Source: an uncultured virus (IMG/VR IMGVR_UViG_3300020404_001964) (lineage: Duplodnaviria; Heunggongvirae; Uroviricota; Caudoviricetes). From it: a DNA stretch of 64,000 nucleotides. The stretch's first letter is position 1, and each line of letters begins with the position of its first letter. Positions 12,207 through 51,100 of the stretch are shown here, one piece after another. Below the pieces are notes generated by a model. It made no database searches, was not told the origin of the DNA, and saw only the letters and a list, made by a program, of their open reading frames with translations. The translations under genes and the position numbers were made by a program. The DNA lies in the IMG/VR virus record IMGVR_UViG_3300020404_001964, positions 62,001 through 126,000 of that record. One strand, 5' to 3'.

Positions 12207-12665
12207 TTATGCGTCATCTGTGAAGTCGTCGTCGTCTGAGTTAGCAACGTCGTCATCACCCGCTTCTTCAACTTTTACTTTACCAGCACTAGCCGCCGCA
12301 AAATCCCATGCGAGTTTTTGTCCGTCTAATGCGTTTGATCCAGTATTGCTTGGTTTAGCAACTGTCAAAGTACGTCCTGAAATTTTGCTTACGCCGTAAG
12401 TTTCATTGTCAGAACCTTGTACTGATATTGTCATTTCGCCTGAAGTTAATGCCGCAGGTAATTTTCCAGATACCAATGTACAAGTGATTTCAGTGTCAGT
12501 GGCACCAGTTTCAGCAACTACGAATTTTTTAGATCCTTTTTGCCTTACGATAGTACCTTCAACAACTGATGAACCATTGTGAAAGTTGACTTTAATTTCA
12601 CTTGCCGCCGCAGTTGCACCGCCAGCCGCTGTTGTGAACAGTCTTTTGTTAAGTGGTCTTCCCAT
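12207..12665 (-). CDS. Late, probably virion, protein (MGRPLNKR N-terminus)
   Basis: Strong AGGAG RBS, TAAATA promoter at 12772-12777, acidic C-terminal tail. Confidence 0.7.
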   Translation of the reverse strand: MGRPLNKRLFTTAAGGATAAASEIKVNFHNGSSVVEGTIVRQKGSKKFVVAETGATDTEITCTLVSGKLPAALTSGEMTISVQGSDNETYGVSKISGRTLTVAKPSNTGSNALDGQKLAWDFAAASAGKVKVEEAGDDDVANSDDDDFTDDA

Positions 12666-12770
12666 TTGTTTTCTCCTATTTTAGAAGTCCAATCCGGGTT
12701 CTATCCGGTACGCAGTGGGTTATTACTGCATAAGACTTTGACATTATGCCAAAGTTCGTTTGAACTAAAG
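12666..12770 (-). promoter_or_regulatory. Structured 5' leader (three-way junction plus competing hairpins)
   Basis: Hand-found helices with G-U pairs on the - strand between late promoter and RBS (see findings). Confidence 0.6.
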
Positions 12771-19087: not shown

Positions 19088-20812
19088 CTAGGCGCCCGGA
19101 GTTGGAGTACCGCCACCTGCTGGTGGATCTCCTGCTGGTGATGGAGCACCTTCTTCACCTGGAGCAGTTGCTGGTGCTTCTGGTTCTGCCGCATCTAAGT
19201 CTGCTTGAATACCTGCTGTGCTTACACCAGCACTTCTTAATTCAGTTGCTGATGTTGTAGGTTTAGATTTGACTGAAGCATCGTTTTCTTCTCTCCACAT
19301 TCTTTCGTTTTCTGCCATCTCTTCTGGAGTTAATCCTAAGAATCTTGATAGAGCATAACGTTTGCTTACAAATGGCACTGTTGCTATTTGTGTGTATGTA
19401 GAAATTCTATTGTTATCCACCTCTGCTTGTCTGTAAGAAGCAAAGTTCATTGGTGGTTGGAACTTGATATCAAACATTGCTGTGTCAATGTTAACACCTT
19501 TTTCTAAAAGATAACGTTTAAACTCTTGATTGAATTCATCTGATACTAAATTTTGTAGTCTTTCACAGTATTTGTTGAATCTTAATTCTTGAATGTATGC
19601 TGTTCCTACTCTACCATCATTGTAATTGCTTTGTGAATCGTCTGCGCCTGTTGGCAAATATGAACTAGGAATACGTAAACCTCTTAATAGTTTGTTTGTA
19701 AAGTATTTTAGGTCATCAATCTCACCTAAGTTAGTACCACCTGGCAGTGTTTCTACTTTAGAACCTCTACCTTCTGCTGTTTGTGGGAAGAAATAATCTT
19801 CATTGATTGATAATGGATTGTACGCAGAGTCTACAACGTTTTGTCCACCACCTGTTGATGAAGGAATACGTCTTTGGTGTATCTCTGTTTTAACTCTTTC
19901 AACGAACTGCATAGCCAAATGCGATGGCATATTACCTACGTCAATGTAAAACACTCTACGTTCTGGTGCTCTTTGTACTCTGTAAATTATAATTGCGTCT
20001 TCTAGTAATTCTTTTTGTTTGTAAACTTTGAAAATGCTTTCTAATAATGAATTACCAAACGGAAAGTTGTTGTCCAGTCCTTCTGATAAACTTAAATGCA
20101 CCATGTGATCGGCATCAACAGCAATTTCTCTTGTTCCTGTTGCGAATCTTGTTCCTGGAGAGTCTTGATAGTTTGCTCCAACCATGCCTCTTACTCCACC
20201 TGTTAAATATCCTGAACCACCGCCAGTAACATTACCAGTTGTTTGATATGGAGTTGTTGCTACAAGATTTTTGAAGTTGAAATTTATATCTCTTACAACA
20301 TATTGTTCAGGTGTTTTACCTGTGCTTTCGTTTACAATGATTTTAGAAACTTTTGCTGGATCAACATGAAACATTTTTTTAGTTTCAGGATCTCTAATAA
20401 AGAAAGCATCACCATATTTGAATACATTACGCATAATTTTAAACACACGTTTGCTGAAATCGTTCATCTTGCACCATTGATGCAGATATTGTTCTATAAT
20501 TTGTATTTCTGTGTTTGTTGCTTTCTGATTATATTCAAATTTGAACGGTGTGTTGTTTTGTGTGTTGTTCTGTGTGCAGAACTCTGCTAGAATATCTAAT
20601 GCGGCATTTACTTCTGAGTCTAAATCCATCACATTGTATTGACCATAACGTTCAATTCTGTTTGGAGCACCACTGTACACATCAGGTAGATATGATGAAT
20701 AGTTTGTTTTGGCAGGGCCTGCCTTGCCACCAGGAGCGCCACCCAATGGTGAATTCATTCCACCCATGCCATCTGATAAAGGCACTTCTGTAAAATATTT
20801 TTTCCAACTCAT
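19088..20812 (-). CDS. gp20: Portal vertex protein (gp20-like)
   Basis: LLEDAIIIYRVQRAPERRVFYIDVGNMP, EDYFFP, GSKVETLPGGTNLGEIDD.KYF. Confidence 0.95.
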   Translation of the reverse strand: MSWKKYFTEVPLSDGMGGMNSPLGGAPGGKAGPAKTNYSSYLPDVYSGAPNRIERYGQYNVMDLDSEVNAALDILAEFCTQNNTQNNTPFKFEYNQKATNTEIQIIEQYLHQWCKMNDFSKRVFKIMRNVFKYGDAFFIRDPETKKMFHVDPAKVSKIIVNESTGKTPEQYVVRDINFNFKNLVATTPYQTTGNVTGGGSGYLTGGVRGMVGANYQDSPGTRFATGTREIAVDADHMVHLSLSEGLDNNFPFGNSLLESIFKVYKQKELLEDAIIIYRVQRAPERRVFYIDVGNMPSHLAMQFVERVKTEIHQRRIPSSTGGGQNVVDSAYNPLSINEDYFFPQTAEGRGSKVETLPGGTNLGEIDDLKYFTNKLLRGLRIPSSYLPTGADDSQSNYNDGRVGTAYIQELRFNKYCERLQNLVSDEFNQEFKRYLLEKGVNIDTAMFDIKFQPPMNFASYRQAEVDNNRISTYTQIATVPFVSKRYALSRFLGLTPEEMAENERMWREENDASVKSKPTTSATELRSAGVSTAGIQADLDAAEPEAPATAPGEEGAPSPAGDPPAGGGTPTPGA

Positions 20813-24181: not shown

Positions 24182-24285
24182 TACAAGGTACTATATATAA
24201 AGTATAGAAAATATCAGCACACACGGTGTCTAGAACCAAATAGCAACATTTAATCAATCACACTGCACTTCTAAATAAATCACAT

Positions 24286-24855
24286 ATGCAAGTCTACACA
24301 CAAATTGTACGACCCCAGGAGTTGGATGAGGATGACCTGTGGATTCCTTGTCTTACCACAGCCACCGTTAAACACTCACCTGCTGAAAAACAACCTTTGA
24401 TTGTCACACACATCGAAGCAATCAATCATTACGAACACAGTCTTACAAAACTGTTGGAACAGAAGGTGTTTGCTGTGGGGTCAAAGACATATGACCGACT
24501 TGTAGAGGTTGGCTTCCACCAAGATAATATTCATTGGCGACACAGAGCGGACGAGTTAAGATTGCGTGCCAAAAACATAGGCCCAATGACTTGGCTCCAC
24601 GGAGACAAGTACGCCAGAGATTTTGGCGCCATACCAGAAGTCACAGCAATTCAAACCTACGAATCAAAACCAGATGCCACAGCCATCAAACAGATATTGA
24701 AACTGGAACCAGATGTAATTCATGTGTATTCAGATGCTGTATTGAAAGAGTTGGAGATTAGAAACTGGAGTCACACCAAGTTGAAACACGTTGCGTCCGC
24801 GGAACCTGATAATTCTGTTTGGTTAGATTGTGAATCGTTTGATCCTAATGTTTAA
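24286..24855 (+). CDS. hemD: Uroporphyrinogen-III synthase-like protein, compact
   Basis: VRP near N-term, WIPCL, IVTHIEAI (FTS.NAV-like), VFAVGSKT..RL...GF, IQTYES, DVIHVYS..V. Confidence 0.7.
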   Translation: MQVYTQIVRPQELDEDDLWIPCLTTATVKHSPAEKQPLIVTHIEAINHYEHSLTKLLEQKVFAVGSKTYDRLVEVGFHQDNIHWRHRADELRLRAKNIGPMTWLHGDKYARDFGAIPEVTAIQTYESKPDATAIKQILKLEPDVIHVYSDAVLKELEIRNWSHTKLKHVASAEPDNSVWLDCESFDPNV

Positions 24856-25240
24856 GAACGACTAGCGTCGTTCTGCTTTTCGCTTACGCTCAAGCATTAA
24901 AGCAATTACATAACGAAGTTATGTGTCGCATCATGCAGACAGTTGATCCATACTTCACCCAGTAACGGGAAAAGTATGAAGCCATCATGCGAGACTAGCC
25001 TGCCATTTTGTGAAAGGAACTTTTGTACGGAAGCGGTGACCCGCCAACTCCCTATTCCAGACTTCATTAGTCACGGGCAACTGACCCACCCTTCACAAAC
25101 AAAGTGAGCAGTTGTGATGTTGTATCTTTTTCACAGAGCATCTTCTTTTGTGCCTTTAGTTAGCACTCGACTTGCAACTCAGGATTCACCATTGTGTTTC
25201 AAACGCACTTCCTGGATCTACGATCAATTTGGTTGCTATG
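24855..25240 (-). ncRNA. Candidate large structured non-coding RNA (unassigned family)
   Basis: ORF-free, ~45% GC by hand count over 24901-25200, about ten helices, G-U pairs favour the - strand. Confidence 0.6.
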
Positions 25241-25672
25241 TTAAGCCTTGTTGTAATTTTTAAGTTCTTCTTTAAGGATTTTGGAACCACCAACTCTCAC
25301 ATTGATAATGCCATTGTAGTAATCATCGGATTCTAATACTCGCCTTTCGAACTGTTCTCGAGCCTCGAGATAACTCATTACGCCTCTAGTGTTACAGATG
25401 TATAATATTTCCCTAGTAAATTTGTCTTCGCCTAATTGTGCCACGTCAGCAAGTAAATGATCTGAAGAACCCCAATAGTCCTTCCAGTCCGATTCAACCT
25501 TGCTTCTACGTTTGTTTATCCTGCCCTTGAGAGGCGGACGTGTCTTCTTGAATTTTGCTAATTTTTTGCCCACATACCGTTTACCGTTGGTTGTGTTTGT
25601 GATGAGATACACAAATCCTTCGCAGTCTTCTGGTAGTGAGTCTATTGTTTTACCTTGATAAGTCCATGGCAT
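25241..25672 (-). CDS. GIY-YIG-like (Seg-type) endonuclease, catalytic domain only
   Basis: GFVYLITNTTNGKRYVGKK, YWGSS, FTREIL, LEAREQ, YYN. Confidence 0.8.
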   Translation of the reverse strand: MPWTYQGKTIDSLPEDCEGFVYLITNTTNGKRYVGKKLAKFKKTRPPLKGRINKRRSKVESDWKDYWGSSDHLLADVAQLGEDKFTREILYICNTRGVMSYLEAREQFERRVLESDDYYNGIINVRVGGSKILKEELKNYNKA

Positions 25673-25689
25673 ATGGACATACTTACTGA

Positions 25690-25908
25690 TTATTTTTTCC
25701 GCTCTTGCTGTTTTTGGATCTTGGACACTTTATATTGTGCTTCAAGTTCTTTACGTCTTTGACGTGCCAAAATTCTAATTTCCGCTAGTGCCTTTCTAGC
25801 GGCTACTTTGGTAGCGAGGCTTCGCCTCTCAGCAAACAACTCGTTTGCCTTGAAATAAGCCATGTACGCCTTGGTCAGTTTATCGTGAGTATCATCTTGA
25901 ATGGTCAT
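25690..25908 (-). CDS. Small basic protein, histone H1-like Hc1 type
   Basis: Likely start ATG 25908 overlapping the gp46 end; AARKALAEIRILARQRRKE resembles the Hc1 RARKA..E......RKE pattern. Confidence 0.55.
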   Translation of the reverse strand: MTIQDDTHDKLTKAYMAYFKANELFAERRSLATKVAARKALAEIRILARQRRKELEAQYKVSKIQKQQERKK

Positions 25909-27676
25909 AAGTTTCCACGTCATTAGCATATGCTGTAAAGCCGTTCTCTTTCACAACTTTCAACACATTGTTAACACGTCCCATTAATTCATCTTTGTGC
26001 GATATCAAGAATATATTTTTGCCTGCTTCTCTGCTCATTTTCTTCAAGATTGCCAAACTGCTTTCTACACCTGCTGAATCCATTCCTGAATCTATTAATT
26101 CATCTAAGAACAACAAGTTGATGTTTTGATACAAGTTTTCCCATACATCTCTAAATGCGAAACTTAATCCTAATATCAATCTGTTACGTTCTCCTCTACT
26201 TAAATTATCAAAATCTAGTTCTTGTCCCAGTTGAGTGATCTCCACACTTAAATCATTTTTAAATGTGACCAAGTGTGGAAGACCCAATTGATCCAAGTAG
26301 TGAGTTAACCTGTTGTTCAAGAAGGTTAAGTTTTGATCAATTATTTTTTTCCTTATGAAGGAATCTTTGTTTGTAAGCAGTTTGTATAAAAACTCTTGGT
26401 GCTCTTTCAGTTTCTGTAGAGTGTTTGCTGTGTCCCAATTTATTTCTTGTACTGCTTGATTCTTTAATTCATCTATTTGATCTAGATATGGATTTGCTTC
26501 TTCTTTTTTGTTTTTGAGTGCTGTGTTGATTGATTCCACATACTGTCTGTGATCATATGCTTCTTTTAGTGTGTCATAATAAGTGTTTGGTCTTTGATCC
26601 AAATCCCCAACTGCTTCAATATCTTTTGTTGTTTGTTCCAGTTGTTCACTTAATTCCATTACATAACTGTTGGATTCACCATATTCCATTTCTAATTTTT
26701 TCTGCATTTCTTCAATTTTATCTTGCGGTAAGTCTTGTCCACAAGCATAACAAGTGGCTTTGTGATTTAATTTTTCTAAATCTTTGTGTAATTTTTTTGC
26801 TGTTTTGTCTGCTTGTTCTATTGTGCTTTCCAAACTTGCTCTATCTTTTTGTAATTGTCTTAATACATCATTAAGTTTTGTCCAATCTTCAAGTTTTTGA
26901 TGTGCTTCTAATTCAGCATCAATGTCTACACTTTGTAATTCTTTTAAATTATTTTCTAATTTTTCAATATCTGTTTTGTTTTGATTGTGCCAAGCACTGC
27001 TTTTATTAGTTAAACTGTGAATTGTTTCTTCTACTTTCTCATTACTAATTTTTAAACCTTCTAATCTTGCTGTCTCAAGTGCTATATCTTCTTTTGAACG
27101 TTTAATATGTGTCTTTAAGATGTCTGCTTTCTCAGACAACAGTTGAATTCCTAATAGTTGTTCAATTATTTCCTGTTGTTCATTGTTGTGTAAACTTAAA
27201 AAAGGTTGCGTGTATGTGTTGAGTGCCACAATGTGTTTAAACATTTTTGGATTCATTCCAATCATTCTGTTCAAGTCTTCTTGTGTTTTACGTGAATCTC
27301 CTTGACTGACATCTGAAAGTTCTTGTTCTTGTTCGTCAATGTAATATTTCATTACATTTGGTTTTCTACCACGTTCTACTCTGTAGTTTACTCCATCTTT
27401 TTCAAATGCTATTGTGACCAACATTGATTTGCTGTTGGTTTTATTCACAAGATTGTCTTTACGAATTTTTGTTAGTGCTTCACCATATAGTGCGTAACAC
27501 AATGCGTTGACTATGGTTGTTTTACCTGTACCATTACGTGAACCTGCGTCATCACCGCCCATGTCCAAGTTTTCACCTAGTACCAGTGTTAACAGTTTTT
27601 GTTGAAAGTCTATAGCCTGGGTTTGATTACCCACACTCATAAAATTTTTTACCGTAAGTGTTTTAATCAGTATCAT
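25892..27676 (-). CDS. gp46: Recombination endonuclease ATPase subunit (gp46/Rad50/SbcC)
   Basis: KNFMSVGN, Walker A NGTGKT, zinc hook CYAC, signature LSRGE, LFLDE, ISH. Confidence 0.95.
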   Translation of the reverse strand: MILIKTLTVKNFMSVGNQTQAIDFQQKLLTLVLGENLDMGGDDAGSRNGTGKTTIVNALCYALYGEALTKIRKDNLVNKTNSKSMLVTIAFEKDGVNYRVERGRKPNVMKYYIDEQEQELSDVSQGDSRKTQEDLNRMIGMNPKMFKHIVALNTYTQPFLSLHNNEQQEIIEQLLGIQLLSEKADILKTHIKRSKEDIALETARLEGLKISNEKVEETIHSLTNKSSAWHNQNKTDIEKLENNLKELQSVDIDAELEAHQKLEDWTKLNDVLRQLQKDRASLESTIEQADKTAKKLHKDLEKLNHKATCYACGQDLPQDKIEEMQKKLEMEYGESNSYVMELSEQLEQTTKDIEAVGDLDQRPNTYYDTLKEAYDHRQYVESINTALKNKKEEANPYLDQIDELKNQAVQEINWDTANTLQKLKEHQEFLYKLLTNKDSFIRKKIIDQNLTFLNNRLTHYLDQLGLPHLVTFKNDLSVEITQLGQELDFDNLSRGERNRLILGLSFAFRDVWENLYQNINLLFLDELIDSGMDSAGVESSLAILKKMSREAGKNIFLISHKDELMGRVNNVLKVVKENGFTAYANDVETYDHSR

Positions 27677-28682
27677 TGTTTAGATCTCTAAATATTTTTA
27701 GCAAAACAGATTTATCATATGCATCAGATTCGATTGTTTCAATTTCTTTTGATACAATTTGATCAACACTTTCAAACTTGGTTATGTCTAGTTCTGTATT
27801 GATCTCTTCTTCTTTTTTGCTAGGAATTAAAGTAATTTCTCTACAATCATATTTTTTCATGAAAGTCTCTTTGATATAACTTGCTTCTTCAAAACTTATA
27901 TCAATATCTAGTGTAACTCTTAGATGCATTTTGCTTTTCATTATTTCATCTGTTTTGTCCAGCAATGTGCTTAATTTTACATTTCTATATTTAGGACAGT
28001 TGCCCCAATTGAAATACACAGGCTCTGTGCCATGTTCTAGTATCATCATACCACGCTCATCATCATCAACATCTGCGTAATTGTGCGGAAACGGATTACC
28101 TAAGTAATGAATATTATTTTTAACTTGTCTTTTATGAAAGTGACCAGAGAAAACATACTCTTGTTTTTTAAAGTCGCTTGGTCTTAATTCTCCTGTGTCT
28201 GGCATTTCTACCATAGCATTCATAAAGAAGTTAGGCAGTTCAAAATGACCAAACATATATTTGCATTCCATATTGCCAACTTTTTTCCATTCATTGCCTA
28301 TTAACCAAGGCACTAATATAGTGTCATCTATTTTTGTAATTTTATTAACCATTGTGATGCCTGGAATAAATCTTCCAAACTCTGTGGATTGAATGTCTCT
28401 GCTGTCTTTGTAATACAAATCGTGATTACCTGGAAAAAAATAAAAATTATCAAATGCTTTTCCTAATTTTTCCAAACATCTGATTGAAGCATCCATTGTG
28501 GTTATGTTTACACTGTTCCTGTTGTGATGCCAATCACCACAAAAGAGTCCTGTCTCACAACCATGTTTCTTTGCTAAATCTATATACCAATCTACAAATT
28601 CTTCACAATCATCGTTGTGTAATTTAGAGTTGGATTTTAATCCGAAATGTATATCGGTAAAAACTGCTAATTTCTTGAACAA
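27663..28682 (-). CDS. gp47: Recombination nuclease subunit (gp47/Mre11/SbcD)
   Basis: TDIHFG, GDWHH, GNHD, FGHFE, SGHFH; TTG start after AGGAG. Confidence 0.95.
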   Translation of the reverse strand: MFKKLAVFTDIHFGLKSNSKLHNDDCEEFVDWYIDLAKKHGCETGLFCGDWHHNRNSVNITTMDASIRCLEKLGKAFDNFYFFPGNHDLYYKDSRDIQSTEFGRFIPGITMVNKITKIDDTILVPWLIGNEWKKVGNMECKYMFGHFELPNFFMNAMVEMPDTGELRPSDFKKQEYVFSGHFHKRQVKNNIHYLGNPFPHNYADVDDDERGMMILEHGTEPVYFNWGNCPKYRNVKLSTLLDKTDEIMKSKMHLRVTLDIDISFEEASYIKETFMKKYDCREITLIPSKKEEEINTELDITKFESVDQIVSKEIETIESDAYDKSVLLKIFRDLNNDTD

Positions 28683-28732: not shown

Positions 28733-29584
28733 CTACTTTTTTGTTCGTTTACTGACTTTTGTTTTTGGAGCCGATTTTGTTGCAGGTTTTGGCGCACTGC
28801 TATCACCGGAAGTTTGTCTGGTCATACTCGGCATCATATTGTTAAGTTCTAAAATATCATCTCTAATGTTTTGATTTCTTTTTTCAATATTAATAATTCT
28901 CACAAATGAATTAGTCACTGCCGCTGTGTAATAAGCAAACGGATTGTTAGATTTACTTTCATCAAATTGTAAACCAATTTGTGCTAATTGTAAAATGGCC
29001 TGACCCTGCATTTCATCATTGTAAGTATAACCTCTCACGTTACCTCTTGTACCGTATCTTTCACACAATTTCATCCACATCTTTGCTAATTCGTTTGTGG
29101 CTCTGCCGGCATCTTTATTAAATTTACCGTTTTCCATTCCACCATCCCAATGACTTTTACCCACACAAACCAAGTTGCCTTTTTTATCATATTTCCAATG
29201 CTGGAAAGGAGGAAAGTTAACTTTTACTTTGCCATCAGCAACTGTTTTTGGATTCTTTTTTCTGCCAGGTTCGTCTGGGATATGCTCAAAAGTCATCACT
29301 CTAAAAACTACATCATCTTTATCTATTGACCTATAATCTATTTCGCAGTCACTTAATTTTGTTTTTGGGTCTACTTTTTTACGTTGTTCATACGTTTGTT
29401 GCGTAAGTTTTTTGGCTTTATTTCTTTTGGCTTGGGCCACAGTTCGTATGTTTATGGCATCCACATTGTTCACAATCAAATTGTATGTGCTGTAGGCTTC
29501 ATCCACAAAACTACAAAAAGTGCTTTTAGACTTGTGAATTTCGGCTAATAGGTCTCTGTTGTTAAGATAATTGACTTTTTTCAT
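28733..29584 (-). CDS. gp55: Late-transcription sigma factor (gp55-like)
   Basis: NYLNNRDLL, NVRGYTYNDEM, FDESKSNNPFAYYT...NSFVR.I..EK. Confidence 0.9.
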   Translation of the reverse strand: MKKVNYLNNRDLLAEIHKSKSTFCSFVDEAYSTYNLIVNNVDAINIRTVAQAKRNKAKKLTQQTYEQRKKVDPKTKLSDCEIDYRSIDKDDVVFRVMTFEHIPDEPGRKKNPKTVADGKVKVNFPPFQHWKYDKKGNLVCVGKSHWDGGMENGKFNKDAGRATNELAKMWMKLCERYGTRGNVRGYTYNDEMQGQAILQLAQIGLQFDESKSNNPFAYYTAAVTNSFVRIINIEKRNQNIRDDILELNNMMPSMTRQTSGDSSAPKPATKSAPKTKVSKRTKK

Positions 29585-38600: not shown

Positions 38601-39136
38601 TAAAATACAAAATATTATTTGGGTCACAAGCAGATACAAGTTTACAAGCAACATTTAAAATTGTTAAAAACACAGAGCAAGTCACAAACGATAGTGATGT
38701 GAAAAGTAGAATTATAACAGCAATCAATCAATTCTTTGCTTTAGAAAATTGGGAATTCGGAGATACTTTCTACTTTACAGAATTAAGCACATATGTGATG
38801 AATGAATTAGCACCTGACCTAGCAACTTTCGTTATTGTACCTAAAGAAGGTTCTAAAGCATTTGGTAGTTTATTTGAAGTAAAATCTGAAAATGATGAAA
38901 TTTTTATCAGCGGAGCAAAAGTTTCTGATGTTGAAATTATAGATGCTGTAACAGCCTCAAAATTAAAAGCAGATGGTAACATAACAACAAGTTCATCAAC
39001 AACCAGCACATTAAGTGGCACATTGCCTACTAGTTCAAGTTCAAGTCCAAGTTACAGCGGAAGTTCAAGTTCAAGTTCCAGTGGAAGTTCAAGTGGAAGT
39101 TCAAGCGGAGGCTCTAGTGGAGGAAGTGGATATTAA
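35612..39136 (+). CDS. gp6: Baseplate wedge subunit (gp6-like)
   Basis: DFDTIR, FNDYIESSE..ALID..AY, ENFLETA.RRES..RLA, FADG.FG..P, QNRMITGEDY. Confidence 0.85.
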   Translation: MSSTDRQNRLLLAEDWKRVYQSYKNAEFKSYDFDTIRRTMIQYIRQNYPEDFNDYIESSEYLALIDLVAYLGQNLAFRTDLNARENFLETADRRESILRLARLISYNPTRNQAANGLLKIVGISTTENIVDSNNLNLSGQTVTWNDSGNTNWYEQFIKILNASLAENEKFGNPVKSENIDAIPTNQYRINANSLDVPVYAFDKTVNGQNLPFEIVSTSFNDGAIVEEAPLTGRKFSMLYRDDGKGASSNNTGFFAHFRQGVLDNGDFNIDVPSNNQSVAIESSNINNTDVWLYTLDTDTGLEDTLWTKVDSVTGNNVIYNSTEKNIRNIYTVLSGADDSISLKFADGIFGNLPQGNFKVYYRRSKNQNIRITPADMQNIQVDVQYVSSNNQVEVLTFTLGLQYTVDNATSSETNDNIRLNAPATYYTQNRMITGEDYNVAPLGTNQEIIKVKATNRTASGISRYYDLIDATGKYSNTNVFGADGVIYKEETENLDTFSFATQTDIEGVIVNQLEPLLSKQQTRNFYIEKFPKVILTDFVPVWQQVTNATNESTGKFIDAVNVIDYQVGSFTASQLKYIEPGAMVKFVAPTGFHFMPDNSLMAGPGDHPGAKDYIWTSVVSVFNDGVSNTSTGEGAVKFNDVIPTSAVASEILPKFSKQFSDDVKTLIIDQAFAYNNFGIRYDVQTRKWNVIDENNLNVFGTFSVGKTGDESNQQLDASWLIKCVNNGATYTITFRGLRYVFESKKEVRFFYDSADRNFNAKTGATIQDKISVLSINTKPDSNNAFNNDINFAISTEYRTQNGYVDSAKIELTQFDSDQDGIVDNPNAFDLVVDPSTNASTKYIFQKLVKNTDGTERYQYCDATEEFIYTRQTSVGAIGDYPNGSIVYLIDSDSFKQVNTTTNTTTDVTNYVAHVGRDKVKFQYVHTVDGNTRLDPSSSNIIDMYILTRTYDINFRLWLAGVTATKPLLPSNDSLYTNFNTPLAKIKSISDTIVYHPVKYKILFGSQADTSLQATFKIVKNTEQVTNDSDVKSRIITAINQFFALENWEFGDTFYFTELSTYVMNELAPDLATFVIVPKEGSKAFGSLFEVKSENDEIFISGAKVSDVEIIDAVTASKLKADGNITTSSSTTSTLSGTLPTSSSSSPSYSGSSSSSSSGSSSGSSSGGSSGGSGY
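39032..39130 (+). repeat. Degenerate AGTTCA/AGTGGA tandem repeat encoding a Ser/Gly tail of the gp6-like protein
   Basis: agttcaagttcaagtcca...aagttcaagttcaagttccagtggaagttcaagtggaagttcaagc. Confidence 0.7.
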
Positions 39137-42100
39137 TGGCATACGACAACAATCAGAAAGATTTCAGTTTGCCTTCAGGCAAAGACAGCGGTAAAAGAGA
39201 ATCTTCAGAATTTTTACCTAAATATTTTAGAACACCAGTCAACCAAAAATTTCTACACAGCACACTTGATCAATTAATATCTCAAGGAACATTAGAAAAA
39301 TTAAATGCTTATTATGGACGTAAGATTACGGACGCCTACAAAGCATCTGATTTGTATGTGCCTGAAGTTGATGCAGACAGAGAAAATTATAAGTTTGAAC
39401 CTAGTGTTGTACAACAAGATGATTTAGGTAATGTAAATTTCTATTCTGATTATATAGATTTTGTTAACCAAGTTAAAAATTTTAACGGTGATGTAACCAA
39501 TCACAGTGTATTGAACGCCCAAGAATATTATGCTTGGTCTCCTAGAATTGATTGGGACAAATTTGTTAATTACAGAGAATATTTTTGGATGCCATACGGT
39601 GCTTCTGCTGTTACAATCACAGGACAACAAAGAAATGTTGTTAGCACATACACAGTAACAAAGTCTGATCAAACAGACAACTACGCATACATTTTCACGC
39701 CAGATGGATTAACAGCAAATCCAACACTTAAATTATACAAAGGCCAAACATACAAGTTTGATATTAATGCTGAAGGTTTACCTTTTGTTATTAGAACACA
39801 AAGAATATTAGACGCATCATATAATGTTACTGACGGAATAGATGTACAAAGTGTAGAAAAAGGAATAATGACTTTTCAAGTCAAAGATTCAGCACCTGAA
39901 AAACTTTACTATGGAAGTGATAATGATATTAATGCTTGGGGACTGATACAAATATATGCTATTGAAGAAAACTCTAGCATTGATGTTGCTAATGAAATAA
40001 TTGGCAAAAAAAATTACACAACGGCTGACGGCGTAGAACTTTCTAACGGTATGAAAATAAATTTTGCCGGAACAGTGACACCTAGTCAGTATGCGGAAAA
40101 AGACTATTTTGTTGAAGGAGTTGGCGAAGCAATTCAATTAATAGATACACAAGAACTAGAAGTTAAAAGTGCTTTTACAGATGTTACTCCGATTCCATTT
40201 GATTCACAAAACTTTGATACAGTAGGATTTGGTACTGCTACTTCTTATGCTGTTGATAAAGACTACATTGTAATCAATAGATCATCTCCAGATAGAAACC
40301 CATGGGCAAGACACAACAGATGGATTCATAAATCTGTAATAGAAGCAAGTGCTAAAGCAAATGGTCAAACAGCCAATATTGATCAAGCCACTAGAGCAAG
40401 ACGTCCTATTATTGAATTTGAAGCAGGTATAAAATTATATAACTTTGGTTTTAAAGCAAAAACAAACATTGACTTAATTGACACAGTAACCACTGATGCG
40501 ATGAGTGACGTAGAAGGTTCACAAGGTTTTTACATTGATGGCATTGCTTTGACTAACGGAATGAATGTCATCTTTTCTGCTGATACAGATCCATTAGTAA
40601 AAGACAAAATTTTTGAAGTTAAATTTATTGATTTTACAGAAGGAACTACCACTACTAAACAAATCAGTTTGGTTGAAGTTACAGGTGGTTCACCAGTTGA
40701 AGGTGATACAGTTTTAACCACAGACGGAAAAAAGAACCAAGGTAAATGGTATTGGTACACAGGCACTACTTGGAAAGTTGGGCAAGAAAAAACAGCAGTC
40801 AACCAGACACCTTTGTTTGATTTATTTGACGACAATGGAGTAAGTTTCACTGATTCAATATTGTATCCTAATAGTTCATTTTTAGGAAATAAAATTTTCA
40901 CTTATGTTGAAGGCACGGGAACAGCAGACACAGAATTAGGTTTTCCTTTAACATATTCAAATGTTGAAAATATAGGTGATATAGTATTTGATTTTAATCT
41001 ATTAAATGAAAATTACACATATCAGTCACAAAATTTAAGTGGAACTCTTAATTCAGAAACAGCATTTTTAAAAAAATATGATGCCACAGGAAATTTTAAA
41101 ACTGTAAACGGTTGGACAAAAGCACCAACAGACAGTTTTCAAAAAGTTAATAGACAGTATGTTGCTACATCAAGTCTAATGAATAACTTCGCTATTGATG
41201 TATACAATCAAAGTGGCGACTTAAATGATTTAACAGCAAATGTTTTTGTAAACAATGTTAAAAAGATTGAAAATACAGATTGGTCTTTTCTAAGAATAGA
41301 TGGCATTGCTTATATTAATTTTACAAAAGACTTAAATGTTGATGATGTTGTTGTAATTAGAACAAACAGTGCTACACCAAAAAATGCTAATGGTCATTAT
41401 GAATTCCCAACAAATTTACAGTCTAATCCATTAAATGCTAAAACAACAAAATTTACTGTGGGTCAAGTTACGGACCATGTCAAATCAATAACAAATGAAC
41501 TTGTAGATATTGAAGGTGTAACTCCAGGAGTAAGCAACCTAAGAGATTTTCCAAATGCTTCAGCATATGGTAGAAAGTTTTTACAACACAGTGGCCCTAT
41601 GCCTTTGGCATCATTCTTGTTAGATAACAGACAAGTTGATTTAATTAATTCTATTTCTACTAGCCAGTATGATTATTTTAAATTCAAAAGAACATTTATT
41701 AAAGCAATGGATGACTTGGGTTTTGATGGAACGCCTAGCCAGACTGTTGATAAAATTTTAAGTAAAATTAATAAAGATAATAACAACAATTTACCTTACT
41801 TCAAAACAGACATGATGGGTATAGGTGCTTTTAAAACAACTACACATACTATATTAGATTTAGATAATAAATTTTTTGCTTTATCATCTAGTTTTAATTT
41901 AACAACATTGTCTACAAAAGCAGTGTACGTGTACCACAATGGTACGCAACTAACACATGATATTGATTATGTGTTTTCAGATGGCTTTGTACAAATTACA
42001 AAAACTGTGGCACTTGATGACACAATAGTAATAAACGAATTTGAAACAACAAATGGAACACATATTCCTGCTACTCCTACAAAACTAGGATTGTATCCGA

Positions 42101-45100
42101 AATATGCTCCTAAGAAATATTTAGATACAACAGCAGTAACTCCATTAAATGTGCTTCAAGGTCATGACGGTAGTGTTATGGTTGCTTTTAACGATTTCAG
42201 AGATGATGTAATCTTAGAAATGGAAAAAAGAATTTTTAACAATATTAAATGTACATACGATGAAGAATTATTTGAAATTAAATCATTTATTCCTAGAGCG
42301 TACTCAAAAAATAAATTCACTTTAGAATCAATCAACAAAACTTTATTAGGAGATTTCAACGAGTGGTTAACATTTATAGGTAACGAAGATTACACAGCAA
42401 ACACTTATTGGGCAGAAGATAACAGTCTTACTTGGAATTACAGCAATATGGTGTCTCCTAATGACACAAATATATTAGGTTTCTGGAGAGGTGTGTATAA
42501 TCATGCTTATGATACTGACAGACCAAATATAACTCCATGGGAGATGTTGGGTTACACAATTGAACCTAGTTGGTGGTCATCAGTGTATGGGCCAGCACCT
42601 TACACAAAAGACAATTTAATTTTATGGCAAGACCTTGAAAAAGGTATTGTGAGAGAGCCTAATAAAAAAATTGTTGTAAAAGAAAACTATAAAAGACCAG
42701 GATTAGCAAGTCATATACCAGTAGACAGCGAAGGAAACATAAGAAGTCCATTTGACAGTGCTTATGCCAGAGGGGCAGTTTTACAACTGACAAAACAAAA
42801 ATTTAAATTTGGGGATCACTCTCCAATAGAGAATACATGGAGAAGAAGTGTTCATTATCCATTTGCTCTTTTAAAAAGTTACATTTTACACCAACCTTGT
42901 AAAGCAATAGGCATAGGTTTAGATACAAGTCGTGTAGGCAGAAATGCTAGTGGTCAAATTGTATACAATTCAGCCACTGCTGTAAGACCTACTGATATTG
43001 TGTGGCCAAGCAGTATAAATGACGAAACAGAAATTTTAACATCAGGACTTTTAAATTACGTTTATGAAACAGTGGAAGATTCACAAACTACAAATTATAC
43101 AGATTACAAAGAACAATTTGCTGGTATTCAAACACAGGTTGGTTTTAAAATAAGAGGCTTCAGTAATAAAGACAAATTTAAATTATTATTGGATAGCAAA
43201 ACACCTTTAAATTCATCAACGTTATTTGTACCAGAAGAAAACTACAAACTGATTTACAATGTTTCTACGCCAGTAGATATTTTAACATACAGTGGTTTAA
43301 TCATAGAAAAACAGCAAACAGGTTTTGCTATCAAAGGTTATGACAAAAATGATCCATACATTAGATATCATATGCCATTTGAACAAGCCAGTGATCCAAC
43401 AGTAAATGTAGGTGGAGTTAGTGCCGCATTTGTTAAATGGGACGCAAACAAAAGATATGATAGCGGTTCTTATGTAAAATATGAAGATAATTTTTATGCT
43501 ACAGATGAAACACACTTATCAACTGAAACATTTGACAGTTCTAAATTTATAAAAATAGTTGAACTTCCTACTGAAGGTGGAGCATCAGCAATTTTAAGAA
43601 AAAGTTTTGTAACAGATAAAGTTATTTCTGCTCCTTATGGCACAGTAATTGATAATATTCAAACAGTAGTGGATATAATTTTAGGTTACGAATCATATCT
43701 AAAATCACAAGGTTTTGAATTTGACCAATTTGATTCACAAAGTTTATTGGTTGCCAATTGGCAATTAAGTGCTAAAGAGTTTTTATTTTGGACAACACAA
43801 AACTGGGATGAAGGCGCTGTAATAAGTTTAAGTCCAGCCAGCAAAAAATTAGTTGTAAATTCAAAATTTGCTACAACAGACAATGTGATAGAAAACAGTT
43901 ACTCTTACGGAGTATTGAAAGAAGACGGAAACACTTTAGATAGAATCAATTTAAGAATTGTACGTAAGTCAAATACATTTGAATTGTTAACAAAAAATAC
44001 AATCAATGGAATATATTTTGCTAAAGTGCCGCTAGTTCAAAAAGAACACGTTTGTTTACTTGACAATACAACAGCATTTAGTGATTTAATTTACGACCCA
44101 GCAAGTGGTTACAAACAAGATAGAATTAAAATGTTGGGTTACCTAACAGAGTGGGATGGTAGTTTAAACATTCCAGGTTTTGTTTTTGATGAAGCAAAAG
44201 TAAAATCTTGGCAACCATACACAGACTACGCAATGAGTGATGTAGTAAAACACAAACAGTTTTATTATACAGCAAATTCAAAATTAAAAGGCACTGCTGA
44301 ATTTGATAGTAATAATTGGCGTAAATTAGATGGCAAGCCAGATAGCAATCTGCTTTCTAACTTTGATTATCAAACAAATCAATTTGGCGACTTCTATGAT
44401 TTAGACACAGATAATTTTGATAGACAACAACAAAAACTTGCTCAACATTTAATTGGTTATCAACCAAGACAGTATTTGAGCAATATAATAAACGACGATG
44501 TAAGTCAGTATAAATTTTATCAAGGATTTATAAGAGAAAAAGGCACAGCAAATGCTTTGAACAAATTGTTTGATGCACTAGCAAGTGCTGATAAAGAAAG
44601 TTTAGACTTTTTTGAAGAGTGGGCAATCCGTAAAGGTCAATATGGTGCTGTAGATACTTTTGACGAAATAGAATACAAACTGGATGAATCGAAAGTAAGA
44701 TTAAATCCACAACCTATTCTATTAACTGATGATCAACCTGTTGCCACAGATTTAGTTTATAGAATACAATCAGGACAGACATATATTGCTCCAAATGGTT
44801 ACACACATAAACCGTTTCCTGTTATGTATGATCAAAACACATATATCAAAACTGCAGGTCCTGTACATCCAATTGATATTACTTTAACTTTAGCAGATTA
44901 TGATGACTTATTAACTACGTCAAGTCTATCAACATTACAGGAAAATCAATATGTATGGATTGGAAACAATCAAGGAACGTGGAGTGTCTTGAAATATACT
45001 AACACAGATCAACAGATTACATCTGTGATAAAAGATGGTAGCACAATTACTGTAAACACACTTACAACTGCTAATATGCAGGCAGGTGAAATTTTTGTTG

Positions 45101-48100
45101 TAAATGCGAATGGAACAGATTATGTATTAAAATGTTCTTCTGTGAATTTAACATCTATTGTATGTGAAGACAAAGAAGGATTTGTTTCAATTGATCCTGC
45201 TACGGGCATTATTAAAAGATTTACTGAATCTAGATTAAGTTCTATAAATGATATTAACACAACTATAAATGTCAAAGGATTGAAGGACAACGAAAAATTC
45301 TGGATTGATCAATCAGATGATGGCACATGGAAAATTGTAAACAACAAATTTGTTTTCAAGAAACACAATGAATTAAGCACAACTACAGAATCTGGAGATT
45401 CAAGTTTTGGAACAGTAATTGCGGCTAACAAACAAAACACAACAGTGTTGGTAAGCCAACCAACAGATGGTGATGGCAAGATATATGTTTTCAACAGAGG
45501 TTTTGAAAGTGGCACATTAGTTTTAAAACAAATTATAGAAGCACCAACTACTGATCCATTAATAAACTTAGATATATTTGGACCTAACAGTAGTTTTGGT
45601 AAAGGAGTAGATATTTCGCCAGATGGAAAATTTGTGTTAGTAGGTGCTCCTACTGCCGACAATCTTCAAACAGAATACAAAGGCGTATTCAATCCAACTT
45701 CAAACTACAATGTTGGAAATATTGTTCAATACAAACAACAATTATGGAGAGCAGTAAATCAAATAGAAGGGGCAGTAGCACAAGACTTATTTTCAACATT
45801 TGATTCAAGTGCATTTTATAAAGAAAATGTAGGTTTTCAAACAACTAATCTTTTAATTGGTGACAGTATTTTCTTGAACAAGACAACTGATCACTTGCTA
45901 ATTAGAGCATCTGCTGATCAATATTCAGCAACTAAAATAGGCGACAGATTAATTTTAAATTATTTAGATTTCAGTTCAGAATATCCTTTAGATAGAAGCA
46001 ATTATTCTAAAGCACCTAATCAACCGTTTGGAGGAGTTTCAAGTCCAACTATAAAAGACAATGTCTTTAGTGGAACAGACGTACCAATTCAAGAAAAAAT
46101 TGATGAAATATTAGAAATTTCTAACACACTTGTAGACCCAGCAGTTGGACAAACTGTAATTACAGGCACAGCAGAAGGAACAGTTGCGTACATAAGAAAA
46201 GTTGCGTCTAAGTCATTGATATACTTAAAAGATGTGAGCGGTGTATTTGAAGCAAGTGCAACATTATTTTTAGATTTACAACCAGTGGGAGATTACACAA
46301 GAGTAAATTCAGAAGATTACAACTACTTAGGCGGATGGTGGAAAGTAGCCGTTGGTGCCAATGTAAGCACAAACGCAGGCTCCGACATATCAACAAGTGT
46401 TGTTGTAAGAGACATAAAAGTACAAAATGAAGTTAGAGACACCAATTCATTTTTCAGTTCTTTGGAACAACCTATAGTGCCAATCACTCCACAAACACCT
46501 TTAGTGAAAGCACAATTTGGTGTTGGTTCTCATTACGAAACTTACAAAATTAATCCTGCCAACAATACGTGGGAAGTAAGTGGTCAAAATATTTTAAGCA
46601 ACAAATGGTTTGTGAGAACAGGTTATGACATTGCTCATGACAGTACTTTAAATACAAGTAATTCAAGTAATAACATAAGTGTATATTTCAACAATGTTGA
46701 TTCGAGTGCTTATGATTTTTCTGACCTAAGTATTAGTGCTTCTGACACAAATGGTTTGAAAGAAGTTGTAGACGTTTGGGAAGGATATGTTGATGTAGAT
46801 TCGCAACCAGATAATAATGCTAATTATTATTTTCCAGAAGCAGGCGTACACCAAATATACGATCCAAGCACACAGGCACAGGCTGACGTAACTTTTGTAC
46901 AATTTATTGCTTTAGAAAAAATAAGAATTTACTTTAACAATTCAAACGGCAAACAATTTAGTTTAGGTTCTGATGCTGGAGTATCATCTACATTAACAAG
47001 ACTAGGTGGTGGCGTAAACAGAAGCCTAGGATCAATTGAGCAAACAGTTCAATCAGGTCCAGCAGATGGAGATATTTTAGTTTTTAATCATACACAAAAC
47101 ATTTCAGTAACTGGAAATCAAAATTTTTACGCAGTAAATGATATTGAATATTGGATTTGGGACGAGTTTGAAAATGTTCCAGGTATAAGTCAAAGTGCAA
47201 ATATTCCTAGCAGTCAAAATAAAGACTATGTACAAGTTTACAATATTCCAGTTGGCGAAGGTGTACAAAGCGGATTAACTAATCAAGGTGCATTTTTAGT
47301 TTATAAGAAAAATACTGATGGAATATTTGAATACAATTCAGCATACACAGTACCAGACACACAAAGTGGTTTAAGATTAGGAAACAGAATACAAATACGT
47401 GAAGTGGCAGATACAACTGTGGCATTTATAGGTGCTGAAGGAGATGGATCAAGTAATTTACCAGGTAAAGTTTACTTTATAAAATATAGTGCTACTAAAA
47501 ATTGGTGGTTAGGCATAGATGAAAAATACATGGGTCTATTTGATGATCAAGCAGATTACATTAAAGATGAATTAGTTGTATACAATAATCAATTGTACAA
47601 AGCCAGCACAAACATAAGTGCAGGTGCATTTCAAACAAGTTTATGGCAACTACAAGACACACATACAGATGTATTAGGATATGTGCCTAACGATAGTGGC
47701 ATAGAATTACAAGGCGACTCAACATTAGACCAAAGCAATTTAATACGTTTTGCTAAAACATTTGATGTTGATACAAATGGTGTAAATCTAGTTGTTACAA
47801 ATGAATATGGCGATGATAGACAAAATGTCGTTGTGTACAGAAACACAGATGGGCATTACACTTACAAACAGACTATTACACCATTAGATGATTCTACACC
47901 AATTATAAACTTTGGTGCTGATATCAGCATATCTGGAGACGGTGAATTAATTGCTATTGGATCACCACTGAAAGATTTGACAGAAATTGACATGGGTGTT
48001 GTCAATGTATACAAAAAAGTAAACAATGACTCTGGACAATATGTATTAAATCAAACATTAGTAAGTCCAAGCATGGAAACTTCAGAACAGTTTGGGTCAA

Positions 48101-51100
48101 CATTATCATTTAGCGGTGATACTTTAGCAGTAACATCATTTAAAGGCGATCAACAAGTTGATGACGGTTCGACAGTGTTTGATACTAGACATGATGTTGG
48201 TTCAGTACACATATTTGAAAAATTTGAAAACACTTTATTGTACGCAGAAAAATTCAGTTATGATGAAACATTCACAGAGTTTGGAACAAACTTACTAGTA
48301 AACAATAATCACGTTTACATTGGATTACCTAAATTACAATTGGCTGGAAAAGAAAAGGGCACAGTCGTTAACTTTAGAAAATCTCCAGAACAAAACAACT
48401 GGACAAGTTTACATCAAAGTGTTGGAGGAGTAGCACAACCAGATTTATCTAAAGTACAAGGAATATTCTTATACAGTAAATCAAAAAACAAATTATTAAC
48501 TAGATTAGATTTTGTTGATCCAATAACTGGAAAAATTCCTGGACCAGCAGAAGCGGAAATTAGTTACAAAACAAACTATGACCCAGCAGTATACAACAAT
48601 GATTCAGCAGTAGGAACAGTAGATAAAACAAATCACTGGGATGAAAGTCAAGTTGGTAAATTATGGTGGAATATAAGCAAAGCGAAATACTACTATCCTT
48701 ATTTGGACAATATTATTTTTAACAATTCATATTGGAACAAATTATTTGTTGGTGCTAGTATAGATGTACATGAATGGAGTGAATCTTCATACACACCTAC
48801 ACAATACAATGCTATTAGTCAATCAGAAGATGGCTCTGCACTGGGTATAACGGGAACAGTAGAAAACACAACCAACTTTGTTACGAAAAGAATTTATGAC
48901 AAAGTTGCAGGCAAGTTTAATAATAGATATTATTACTGGGTAAAAAGTAAAACAACTACTCCAGAAATAGAAAATAGATTATTAAGTGCGAATGCAGTTG
49001 AAAAATTGATCAAAGATCCTCGTGGACAAGGATACAAATACGTTTCAGTATTCGGCGAGAACAAATTTGCTATTGTAAATTGCGACTCTTTTATTGAAGC
49101 AAATGATACTGTGATTAATTTTAGAATAAACAATGTAGATTCTAACAATAACGTTCACAAAGAATATGCTTTAATAACAGAAGGCAGTGCTACAAGCACA
49201 TTACCGAAAGATATAGAAACTGTATGGTTCAACAGTTTAATTGGATATGATGCTCAGTCTAATCAGATCCCTGATCCAAATTTAAGTGACAAATTAAAAT
49301 ATGGAACACTTCAAAACCCAAGACAAAGTTGGTTTGCAGACAAACAAGAAGCATTAAAACAAGTAATTGAAAGAGTTAACACTTCATTGAAAACAAATTT
49401 AATTGTTGATGAAGTAGATTTAAGCAATTTAATACAATCTGATCCTGCTCCATTAATTAATTCAGGTCTGTTTGATACTACAATCGATACAGAACAAGAA
49501 TTAGATTTTGTAGGAATTGGTTCAGTCAAACCTGCGTTTCTAAATATAACAATTACAGATGGAAAAATTTCAAATGTAGTTGTCACAGATGCAGGTAAAG
49601 GATATAAATCTATTCCAACTGTTAAAATTAAAAGTCTTACAGGTGAAGGTGCATTAATAGGCTTAACAATTGATACAAATGGATCAATTAACAGTGCTAA
49701 AGTATTGAAATCAGGGAAAAATTACAGCAACAATGCTACTATTGAAGTACGTCCATTTAGTGTGTTAGTAAACAATGACAGCACAGTCGATGGTAAATGG
49801 GCAATATATGGATATGTTACAGGTGATGGTTGGCAAAAAACTAAAATACAATCATTCAATGTGAACTTGTATTGGGAGTATGCTGATTGGTATGCTACAA
49901 ACTATAATTCATACACTGCAATAGACCATGTGATATCTCAAAGTTATCTAATTAACTCTTTAGAAGACAGCATAGGACAAATTGTTAAAATTGAAAACAT
50001 TGGTTCAGGCGGATGGTTACTACTTGAGAAAATTGATGATCAAGCAGATGTTGATTACACTGTAAATTACAAAACTATTGGTAGACAAAATGGAACGATA
50101 CAGTTTTCAGATAAACTTTACGTGTACAGTGGAAATGTTGGATTTGATTCCAACAGTTTTGACATTCAATTGTATGATAGACAGCCTATACAAGAAACAA
50201 GAGTTGTATTAGAAACAATTAGAGACAAAATATTTGTTGAAGAATTAGCAATAGAATATAATAAACTTTATTTCTCTAGTATTCAATATGCTTTATCTGA
50301 AAATAAACTTAATGACTTTGTGTTCAAAACAAGTTTTGTTAAGGCACAACACAATGTTGGTCAATTAGAACAAAAAATTACATTTAAAAATGACAATCTA
50401 TCTAATTATGAAGATTATGTTCAAGAAATTAAACCATACAAATCTAAAATTAGAGAGTATGTAAGTTCATATGAAAAATTAGAACCAACAAATTCTGTAA
50501 TAACTGATTTTGACTATCCACCAAGATATGTTAATGGAATAATTACACCATCAAAAGTTACTATTAACAATGATCAACTTGTAGGTGCTGATGGCATTAC
50601 AACTTATCCAGATAAAAATTGGAAAGATAACATTGGATTCAAAATTACTGGCATTAATATAGCAGATGGTGGCACAGCATACACAAATCCACCTGCTGTT
50701 GAAATAACAGGCGGTGGTGGTTCAGGTGCTAAAGCCACAGCATACATTAAAAATGGAGTTGTATATAGAATTAATGTTACAGCAGGCGGTTCAGGTTACA
50801 TATCATCACCAACAATTATTTTAAGTGGTTCTACAACTGGTGTACAAGCAAAAGCAAGTGCAGTGTTAGGCGAAAGTTTAACAAAAACAAGTCATATAGG
50901 AATCAAATTTGACAGAAATACTGGTGATTCTTTTATTACAAACCTTAACAGAACAGAAACGTTTACAGGCAACAACAGCCAAATTAAATTTAAATTAAAA
51001 TGGCCTATGGATGTAAGAACAAACACAATCAGTATACTTGTGGCAGGCAAAAAACAATTGAAAAGCACATTTACATATGGCAATGAAACAGATAACACAA

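Follow-up and report, generated by a model that had tools for sequence, protein, structure and literature searches.

We analysed a 64,000-nucleotide (nt) stretch of DNA (the window) from an uncultured virus (IMG/VR record IMGVR_UViG_3300020404_001964, positions 62,001 to 126,000), in which a gap free of open reading frames (ORFs) lies directly downstream of a gene for a small GIY-YIG nuclease. Comparison with related loci identifies the gap as a gene for a structured RNA, roughly 365–385 nt long, on the minus strand. The locus consists of the following:

24856..25240, minus strand: whole conserved RNA element (RNA positions 1–385, RNA position n being window position 25241 − n; the ends are approximate)
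25241..25672, minus strand: gene for a SegE-type GIY-YIG nuclease of 143 amino acids (aa), matching PF19835 over the full 123-position model (E 6.5e-36)
24286..24855, plus strand: convergent neighbour, gene for a 189-aa protein with a weak HemD-like match

The original prediction, made from the letters of the window, had singled out this gap as its largest non-coding one, richer in GC than its surroundings, and both statements held. It is the longest stretch without an ORF of at least 60 aa (385 nt, the runner-up being 137 nt), its GC content is 44.7%, that of the window as a whole 35.6%, and the earlier hand count of 134 GC in 300 nt over 24901–25200 was exact. Stop codons occur throughout all six frames of the gap, and a short ORF that starts in a repeat described below (r1) is not conserved, being 2–43 aa long and changing frame across 38 sequences. 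The gap is non-coding. When we ran the Rfam 15 covariance models at the gathering threshold and at E values up to 10, no known family matched it. Between 24600 and 25500 the search at E up to 10 returned four chance-level snoRNA or leader matches, three of them in the flanks and the fourth (sno_ZL8, 25228–25305) overlapping just the last 13 bases of the element. ARAGORN found no transfer RNA (tRNA) or transfer-messenger RNA (tmRNA) gene in the window or in the whole 134,280-nt record. With Rfam and ARAGORN both blank in the gap, the earlier failure to recognize hallmarks of tRNA, tmRNA, RNase P or group II introns stands. Intron_gpI gave no match at E up to 10 around the gap, and a group I intron with an embedded GIY-YIG gene was rejected: there is no core match, the minus strand downstream holds no exon, and the next gene is convergent. 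The dense folding proposed for the gap was reflected in a folding energy better than that of shuffled sequences, but only moderately so (z −2.77 on the minus strand and −2.48 on the plus strand), a weak case on one sequence alone.

Related loci were collected via either flanking protein or via the RNA motif, and all of them carry the nuclease or the RNA. The expected conservation in related phages was found: the whole gap was matched at 82–100% identity in 59 IMG/VR loci (28 distinct sequences including the window), and this identity persists even where that of the 189-aa neighbour protein falls to 41–65%. Among 29 close relatives, variation is confined to linkers and loops of 3–6 nt. An iterated sequence profile found at least the 3′ part of the element downstream of 86 out of 90 distinct nuclease gene relatives; of the four without a match, three have, by eye, the sequence blocks of a sister class (see below), and one has an ORF instead. 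Nucleotide conservation of the RNA is equal to or above that of the flanking coding genes, which include the recombination genes gp46 and gp47: at one locus (L063) identity is 89% for the RNA, 84% for gp47, 81% for gp46 and 68% for the gene of the 189-aa protein, and at another (L062) it is 88% for the nuclease gene, 84% for the RNA, 74% for gp46 and 62% for the 189-aa gene. The carriers are uncultured marine, estuarine and freshwater T4-like jumbo phages. A blastn search of 50,697 phage records with the RNA at E up to 10 gave no match, and the class I motif had no matches in 185,579 prokaryote genomes.

Changes among the relatives follow base-pairing. A plain MAFFT alignment of 38 sequences, not fitted to structure, carries compensatory changes at 18 of the 48 pairs predicted by alifold. 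As the RNA is too long for a single model, we used three covariance models on hand-set structures, to which the distinct loci were realigned. In segment A (helices P2, P3, P3a and P4/P4a; 46 distinct rows) 93.2% of cells were paired, against 72.1% in shuffled and 37–43% in slid controls, with double changes at 20 of 27 pairs and a covariation score of 0.533 (0.182 shuffled). Segment B (P6, P7, P7a and P8; 39 distinct rows) was 95.9% paired (82.6% shuffled, 50–60% slid), with double changes at 11 of 18 pairs and a score of 0.373 against 0.145; for segment C (P11 and P12; 69 distinct rows) the values were 91.2% (71.9% shuffled, 36–42% slid), 13 of 19 pairs and 0.514 against 0.185. Together the models hold 64 pairs, 44 of them with double changes, at 91–96% paired versus 72–83% shuffled, the shuffle figures not being probabilities, since the alignments are fitted to structure and their sequences share descent; both the slid controls and the MAFFT alignment, made without such fitting, agree in direction with the fitted models. 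The 64 pairs include 346 G-U cells but only 22 A-C cells, so the folded strand is the minus strand, that of the nuclease gene, as the original prediction had read from stems closing through G-U pairs. Conservation, covariation and the G-U/A-C asymmetry all agree with the proposed multi-domain structured RNA, in which the comparison predicts at least twelve helices. On the RNA, P1 with a variable 5′ domain comes first, followed by P2, P3 and P4, a P6-P7-P8 three-way junction, P9 and a 3′ module made up of r1, P11, the second repeat (r2), P12, the G-A-motif hairpin P13 and an end hairpin. The parts map as follows (bp, base pairs):

25232–25236 with 25174–25178 (RNA 5–9 with 63–67), minus strand: P1, paired in 34/34 sequences having P1, G-C changed to A-U in 3
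within 25174..25236, minus strand: variable 5′ domain enclosed by P1, with a hairpin GAUC/GAUC and a stem CCAGGA/UCCUG
25150..25166, minus strand: P2 hairpin with a conserved loop, both sides changed at 4/5 pairs
25116..25142, minus strand: P3 with an inner P3a and an invariant GCUCUG.GAAAAAG..CAAC core; P3 100% paired, two-sided changes at 3/4 pairs
25078..25114, minus strand: P4/P4a, a 14-bp hairpin with three G-U pairs, 93% paired, two-sided changes at 13/14 pairs
25016..25058, minus strand: three-way junction in which P6 (25055–58 with 25016–19) closes P7/P7a (25029–52) and a vestigial P8 (25020–28)
24999..25015, minus strand: P9 (tentative), a short stem of ambiguous register with an invariant AUGG loop, paired in 27–33 of 38 sequences per position (MAFFT)
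24983..24995, minus strand: direct repeat r1, RNA sequence GUCUCGCAUGAUG, variable positions the same as in r2 in 69/69 distinct rows
24949..24978, minus strand: P11, a 12-bp hairpin between the repeats, two-sided changes at 7/12 pairs
24929..24940, minus strand: direct repeat r2, RNA sequence GUCUGCAUGAUG, counterpart of r1
24908..24924, minus strand: P12 hairpin, UUC loop closed by C-G, two-sided changes at 6/7 pairs
24875..24895, minus strand: P13 hairpin, with a GCUU/AAGC stem, tandem G-A/A-G, a 2-bp stem and a GUAA loop
24855..24874, plus strand: end hairpin with a T-rich tail, terminator-like for the convergent gene 24286–24855 and also the 3′ end of the conserved block

Most helices of the original prediction reappear in this map. 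GCAAC/GTTGC (P1) is kept with its G-C to A-U exchange, and GTGC/GCAC (P2), GATG/CATC (P3), CAACTG/CAGTTG with its inner 8-bp stem (P4/P4a), CATACTT..CCC/GGG..AAGTATG (P11) and the hairpin at 24908–24 (P12) all carry the two-sided changes listed above. The GCGG..CCGC stem (P7a) is supported in relatives, and so is the hairpin placed at 24874–96, now P13, in which the G-A and A-G are retained in 31 of 34 sequences and the inner C-G becomes U-A in 5. P6 is 100% paired, with compensatory changes at 4/4 pairs (G-C, A-U and U-A alternate in the MAFFT alignment), and P8 is in relatives a hairpin of variable length. Two proposals stood in part. The CAGGA/TCCTG stem is invariant in close relatives, but another stem substitutes for it in distant ones, where the stems inside P1 are swapped for different stems. 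The hairpin at 24855–74 exists but reads as a plus-strand terminator of the convergent gene; it has the GC-rich hairpin and tail (GCTTTTCGCT) of an intrinsic terminator, accounts for the last 20 nt of the gap only, and is the sole terminator-like site between 24600 and 26000. Two pairings failed: in the 9-of-10 helix TCGCATCATG/CATCATGCGA the outer pairs break with no compensating change, its arms varying as direct repeats, and the pairing of 25068–74 with GACTA at 24993–97 is gone in relatives that read UCAUC. Further candidates were rejected, namely a P7-like GACUA/UAGUC pairing (missing in close relatives), P5 (GACU/AGUC, uncompensated in distant relatives), a long-range GUUG/CAAC pairing from alifold, which is in competition with P1 and does not form in L116 or L121, and a CCG/UGG pseudoknot, dropped with its three core pairs invariant and its fourth broken in 7 of 38 sequences.

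The two arms of the failed helix are, on the RNA, direct repeats of 12–13 nt. At their three most variable positions r1 equals r2 in 69/69 rows of segment C, where independence predicts 36.1, 57.8 and 61.5 rows, and over nine variable positions agreement extends to 564 of 621 cells; permutation gave a mean of 478 (sd 6), and 0 of 2000 permutations reached 564. The shared core occurs in at least 12 versions (ACAUGAU, GCAUGAU, ACAUGAA, ACAUAAA, AGAUAAU, ACAGGAA and ACAUCAA among them), the same within one phage and different between phages, so that the two repeats change in concert. Each ends 3–4 nt before a hairpin; they are spaced about 54–70 nt apart, and the sequences between and after them are unlike. 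No Watson-Crick complement of the core was found within 560 nt after the nuclease gene, and further copies of the repeat in the window occur at chance level only. The pattern goes beyond ordinary RNA pairing, the repeats appearing to be selected to stay identical to each other. Most simply, r1 and r2 would both be recognized by the same sequence-specific partner, which could be a protein or a nuclease.

Built on such twin sites, the 3′ module could be an anti-defence decoy, both repeats being bound by one lineage-specific, sequence-specific factor and the RNA being escorted by the nuclease. The factor, for which a host endoribonuclease similar to type III toxins or the adjacent GIY-YIG protein might qualify, would excise or clamp the P11 hairpin unit that lies between r1 and r2, while the linked Seg-type nuclease would secure inheritance or amplification of the RNA gene under pressure from defence systems, as known from SegB and tRNA genes. 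In a bolder variant the identical strands of r1 and r2 would pair in parallel, like bases with like, and it is because of this pairing that, if the variant is true, they would have to stay identical. In type III toxin-antitoxin systems the direct repeats of the ToxI RNA are all recognized by one sequence-specific endoribonuclease, and phages carry pseudo-ToxI mimics; here, in contrast, there are two short repeats (12–13 nt) only and no ToxN-type gene nearby. The likeness to ToxI amounts to a lead. We regard a decoy as quite unlikely.

Repeats that evolve in concert also recall iterons, and the locus adjoins the recombination genes gp46/gp47. It might thus act on its own DNA locus, either through an origin-type primer RNA similar to ColE1 RNA II or as iteron-like repeats for a DNA-binding protein. 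However, the excess of G-U over A-C (346 to 22) indicates selection on one strand as RNA, transcription is convergent here rather than divergent, and there is no AT-rich unwinding element, the gap being the GC-richest part of its neighbourhood. An element of this kind is, in our view, very unlikely.

The protein encoded upstream has the features of a GIY-YIG catalytic domain, in that the GIY and YIG motifs and Y22, Y33, G35, R55, E103 and N120 are invariant in 28 homologs. The stop codon of its gene adjoins the conserved start of the RNA, CAUAGCAAC, and in some relatives lies inside this motif. An ORF that stops at 143 aa immediately before the gap, when characterized Seg proteins have about 200–250 aa, could suggest that the gap is what is left of a once longer gene, such as the missing DNA-binding half of a Seg nuclease, and is conserved through recent descent only. 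Against this, the nuclease is 137–143 aa long in all 80 loci compared and hence not truncated, stops occur in all frames of the gap, substitutions track base-pairing and not codon positions, and the RNA is more conserved than the neighbouring coding DNA. Covariation and the constant protein length rule out gene decay, to which we attach next to no credence. Among relatives the nuclease protein is 71–89% identical, compared with 51–72% for gp46, a difference that either very strong selection or transfer of the nuclease-RNA module between phages could account for.

More distant homologs of the nuclease are common in cyanophages at about 40–45% identity, mislabelled as 'NAD synthetase'. What follows the homolog at three cyanophage or Stenotrophomonas phage loci is either small ORFs, or one small ORF ahead of a tRNA cluster, or convergent ORFs; one cyanophage homolog has four tRNA genes after it. 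The only cultured phages with a close homolog (73% aa identity) are represented by Methylophilales phage Melnitz-1 (MZ577095, 29197–29637), in which a CAUAGCAAC..GUUG hairpin directly follows the stop codon, the large RNA is absent and three small annotated ORFs come next. A 70% identical homolog lies on a 7.5-kb contig of a gammaproteobacterial single-cell genome (L258), with a tRNA-Thr gene about 1.9 kb downstream; the 3′ module of the RNA was not detected on this contig, which may give a hint to the host of the relatives.

The 143-aa GIY-YIG domain could conceivably use the RNA as its scaffold or guide, in the manner of IscB and TnpB with their omega RNAs. The protein consists of the catalytic domain only, its linkage to the RNA is strict, the insertion after the YIG motif is longer and more basic in the RNA-linked clade than in the cyanophage homologs, and two identical repeats could seat two protein copies. 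Yet close relatives show no hypervariable stretch of guide length, as they vary only in the 3–6-nt linkers and loops, and related nucleases of the same length occur in genomes without the RNA. The OMEGA systems differ, too, in having a variable guide segment of about 16–20 nt at the scaffold end, which is missing here, and RuvC/HNH rather than GIY-YIG nucleases. We know of no RNA-guided GIY-YIG enzyme, and a literature search for GIY-YIG proteins with structured or noncoding RNA found none, nor anything on this RNA. Such a partnership therefore seems distinctly unlikely.

The linkage itself is nearly complete. A scan of IMG/VR with a 31-nt motif of the RNA found at least 119 loci; 45 of those listed have no room upstream, and in every one of those listed with at least 300 nt upstream (74/74) the nuclease gene lies directly upstream on the same strand. 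The corresponding scan with the sister-class motif gave at least 120 loci, and among the 120 matches listed the nuclease is upstream in 63, directly downstream in 3, without room in 53 and at a contig end in 1. RNA and nuclease are thus adjacent in 140 of the 141 loci with room among the matches listed (74/74 and 66/67). In the three swapped sister-class loci the downstream gene is SegE-type, at 50–55% identity. At L314 an ORF is followed by a terminator-like hairpin, then by some 690 bases that are free of ORFs and contain the RNA (here r1 = r2 = ACAUAAAG), and finally by a SegE_GIY-YIG ORF, the last RNA hairpin stopping a few bases before the nuclease start. Because the L314 RNA precedes the nuclease gene after a terminator-like hairpin, the RNA is not merely the tail of one gene.

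Adjacency at 140 of 141 loci could also mean that the RNA is a cis-acting untranslated region (UTR) of the nuclease messenger RNA (3′, and 5′ in the three swapped loci), tuning its stability or translation, for instance to keep the nuclease low. The RNA begins at or within the nuclease stop codon, no promoter-like site separates the two, and the end hairpin of the L314 RNA stands a few bases before the nuclease start, all as a UTR would have it. On the other hand, 370–560 nt with at least 12 covarying helices and many invariant unpaired bases exceed what known bacterial UTR elements need, the sequence of the element is the same on either side of the gene, and the cyanophage homologs manage without the RNA. 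We consider a UTR unlikely.

Comparison of the loci further places the element, as one of several classes, in a large modular family that is linked to a Seg-type nuclease gene and combines swappable 5′ domains with a universal 3′ module. In distant relatives the RNA is preserved from around profile position 55 onward, and a different 5′ domain lies inside P1; in other classes the entire 5′ half is replaced, the total length is 450–560 nt, and the 3′ module is retained. At three loci this replacement 5′ part is Polynucleobacter-1, an Rfam motif (RF01718; 87.1 bits in L101, 62.2 in L109 and 59.4 in L097, against a gathering score of 37), and these RNAs lie downstream of the same nuclease gene and share the 3′ module of the window RNA from about profile position 175. 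The window RNA, with its different 5′ half, gave no match to the 141-nt Polynucleobacter-1 model at E up to 10. The motif was described in 2010 as a candidate cis-regulator with 16 members, found in fresh water and in Burkholderiales (Weinberg et al. 2010, PMC2864571); it is not presented there as a piece of a larger phage RNA, and in the full-text literature, as far as accessible, the name turned up in this paper only.

The reading towards which we lean, with modest confidence, is that of a separate RNA gene with a Seg-type homing nuclease at its side, after the example of segB and the tRNA cluster of bacteriophage T4, the RNA itself acting in trans during infection. The RNA would be a gene in its own right, as suggested by the three related loci that place it after a terminator-like hairpin with the nuclease behind. 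In this phage it might form the end of the nuclease transcript, or be transcribed from a start within the nuclease gene. A free-standing homing-type nuclease at the edge of the RNA gene would promote its inheritance, and possibly its amplification, in mixed infections. In published work, segB encodes a GIY-YIG homing nuclease within the T4 tRNA cluster and drives the preferred inheritance of that cluster (PMC2330249), and SegB homologs are enriched beside tRNA genes and amplify them under defence pressure (PMC13096335). The T4/T6 segB arrangement resembles ours in several ways: a T4-like myovirus has a free-standing Seg-type GIY-YIG gene next to conserved RNA genes of the phage, nuclease and RNA travel together, and the nuclease gene may stand on either side. 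It differs in that the RNA here is a multi-domain RNA of 370–560 nt rather than a tRNA, and the nuclease sits at a fixed genomic place without a C-terminal DNA-binding domain; any homing or amplification here is putative.

Several observations weigh against an independent RNA gene with a homing escort. The nuclease lacks the C-terminal DNA-binding domain of characterized Seg enzymes, ending about 20 residues past the catalytic domain, and it is fixed after gp46 in nearly all relatives, unlike a sporadic homing gene. The cyanophage homologs that were checked are without the 3′ module of the RNA, and since they occur without it the nuclease protein does not need the RNA. We found no promoter-like site between the nuclease gene and the RNA, and none for the RNA in the window. 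Parts of the stretch are held by 16 RNA-library runs, and we compared the contigs of four of them (from four studies) over 24200–25800; these are assembled contigs, which carry no strand, ends or level. They match the RNA with 0–1 differences and extend, at much the same depth, over the genes on either side of it; one is 7.7 kb long. They establish presence only, neither a discrete nor an abundant RNA, and DNA carry-over is possible. The fitting of the alignments to structure and the kinship of the sequences, given above with the shuffle figures, belong on this side as well.

GOLLD, ROOL, OLE, raiA and HEARO are large ornate noncoding RNAs of bacteria and phages, HEARO being named after a neighbouring endonuclease gene. 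The present RNA resembles them in size class, in its many covarying helices and invariant junction nucleotides, in its phage or mobile context and in its unknown function; the likeness is one of kind only, as there is no similarity to them in Rfam 15. Large RNAs with an intricate fold and no assigned function are seldom met, and all those solved to date have brought new biology to light. The present one lies outside the described families and absorbs a known orphan motif, Polynucleobacter-1, in a sister class; it is better conserved than essential genes at its side, and it is common, the two exact-motif scans having found at least 119 and at least 120 IMG/VR loci. Its tie to a minimal GIY-YIG nuclease, its modular build and its repeat pair kept identical offer handles for experiments. 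If our preferred reading is right, the escort of phage RNA genes by Seg nucleases would extend from tRNAs to a new kind of RNA.

The phage itself is a T4-like myovirus by the gene content of the window, and probably a jumbo phage, judging from the length of the record (134,280 nt) and its completeness rating of 37%. The marker genes are:

19088–20812: portal gp20 (PF07230, E 8.8e-113)
25892–28682: recombination genes gp46/gp47, a T4-like marker, gp46 being 25892–27676
28733–29584: late sigma factor gp55, a T4-like marker

The closest cultured-phage matches of the portal reach only about 50% identity. The size of the phage is estimated at roughly 360 kb, yet its sequenced part of 134 kb is without any tRNA gene. 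Two contigs of 335 kb (L256) and 153 kb (L257), binned as a Neomarinimicrobiota metagenome-assembled genome, carry the nuclease gene at 74% identity and the 3′ module of the RNA at 68.5 bits, and are probably jumbo-phage contigs misplaced in a bacterial bin. The 189-aa convergent neighbour matches HemD (uroporphyrinogen-III synthase, HEM4; PF02602) at E 4.9e-4, below the cut-off. The sole Rfam match in the window is a freshwater-2 RNA (RF02980) at 12663–12753 on the minus strand (74.8 bits, gathering score 49.9), which lies in a 110-nt gap upstream of a 152-aa ORF (12207–12665) inside the structural gene block. Finally, one ORF of 4890 aa occupies 39136–53808 on the plus strand, with an ORF of 1174 aa before it; both are of virion type and unusually large for a T4-like phage.

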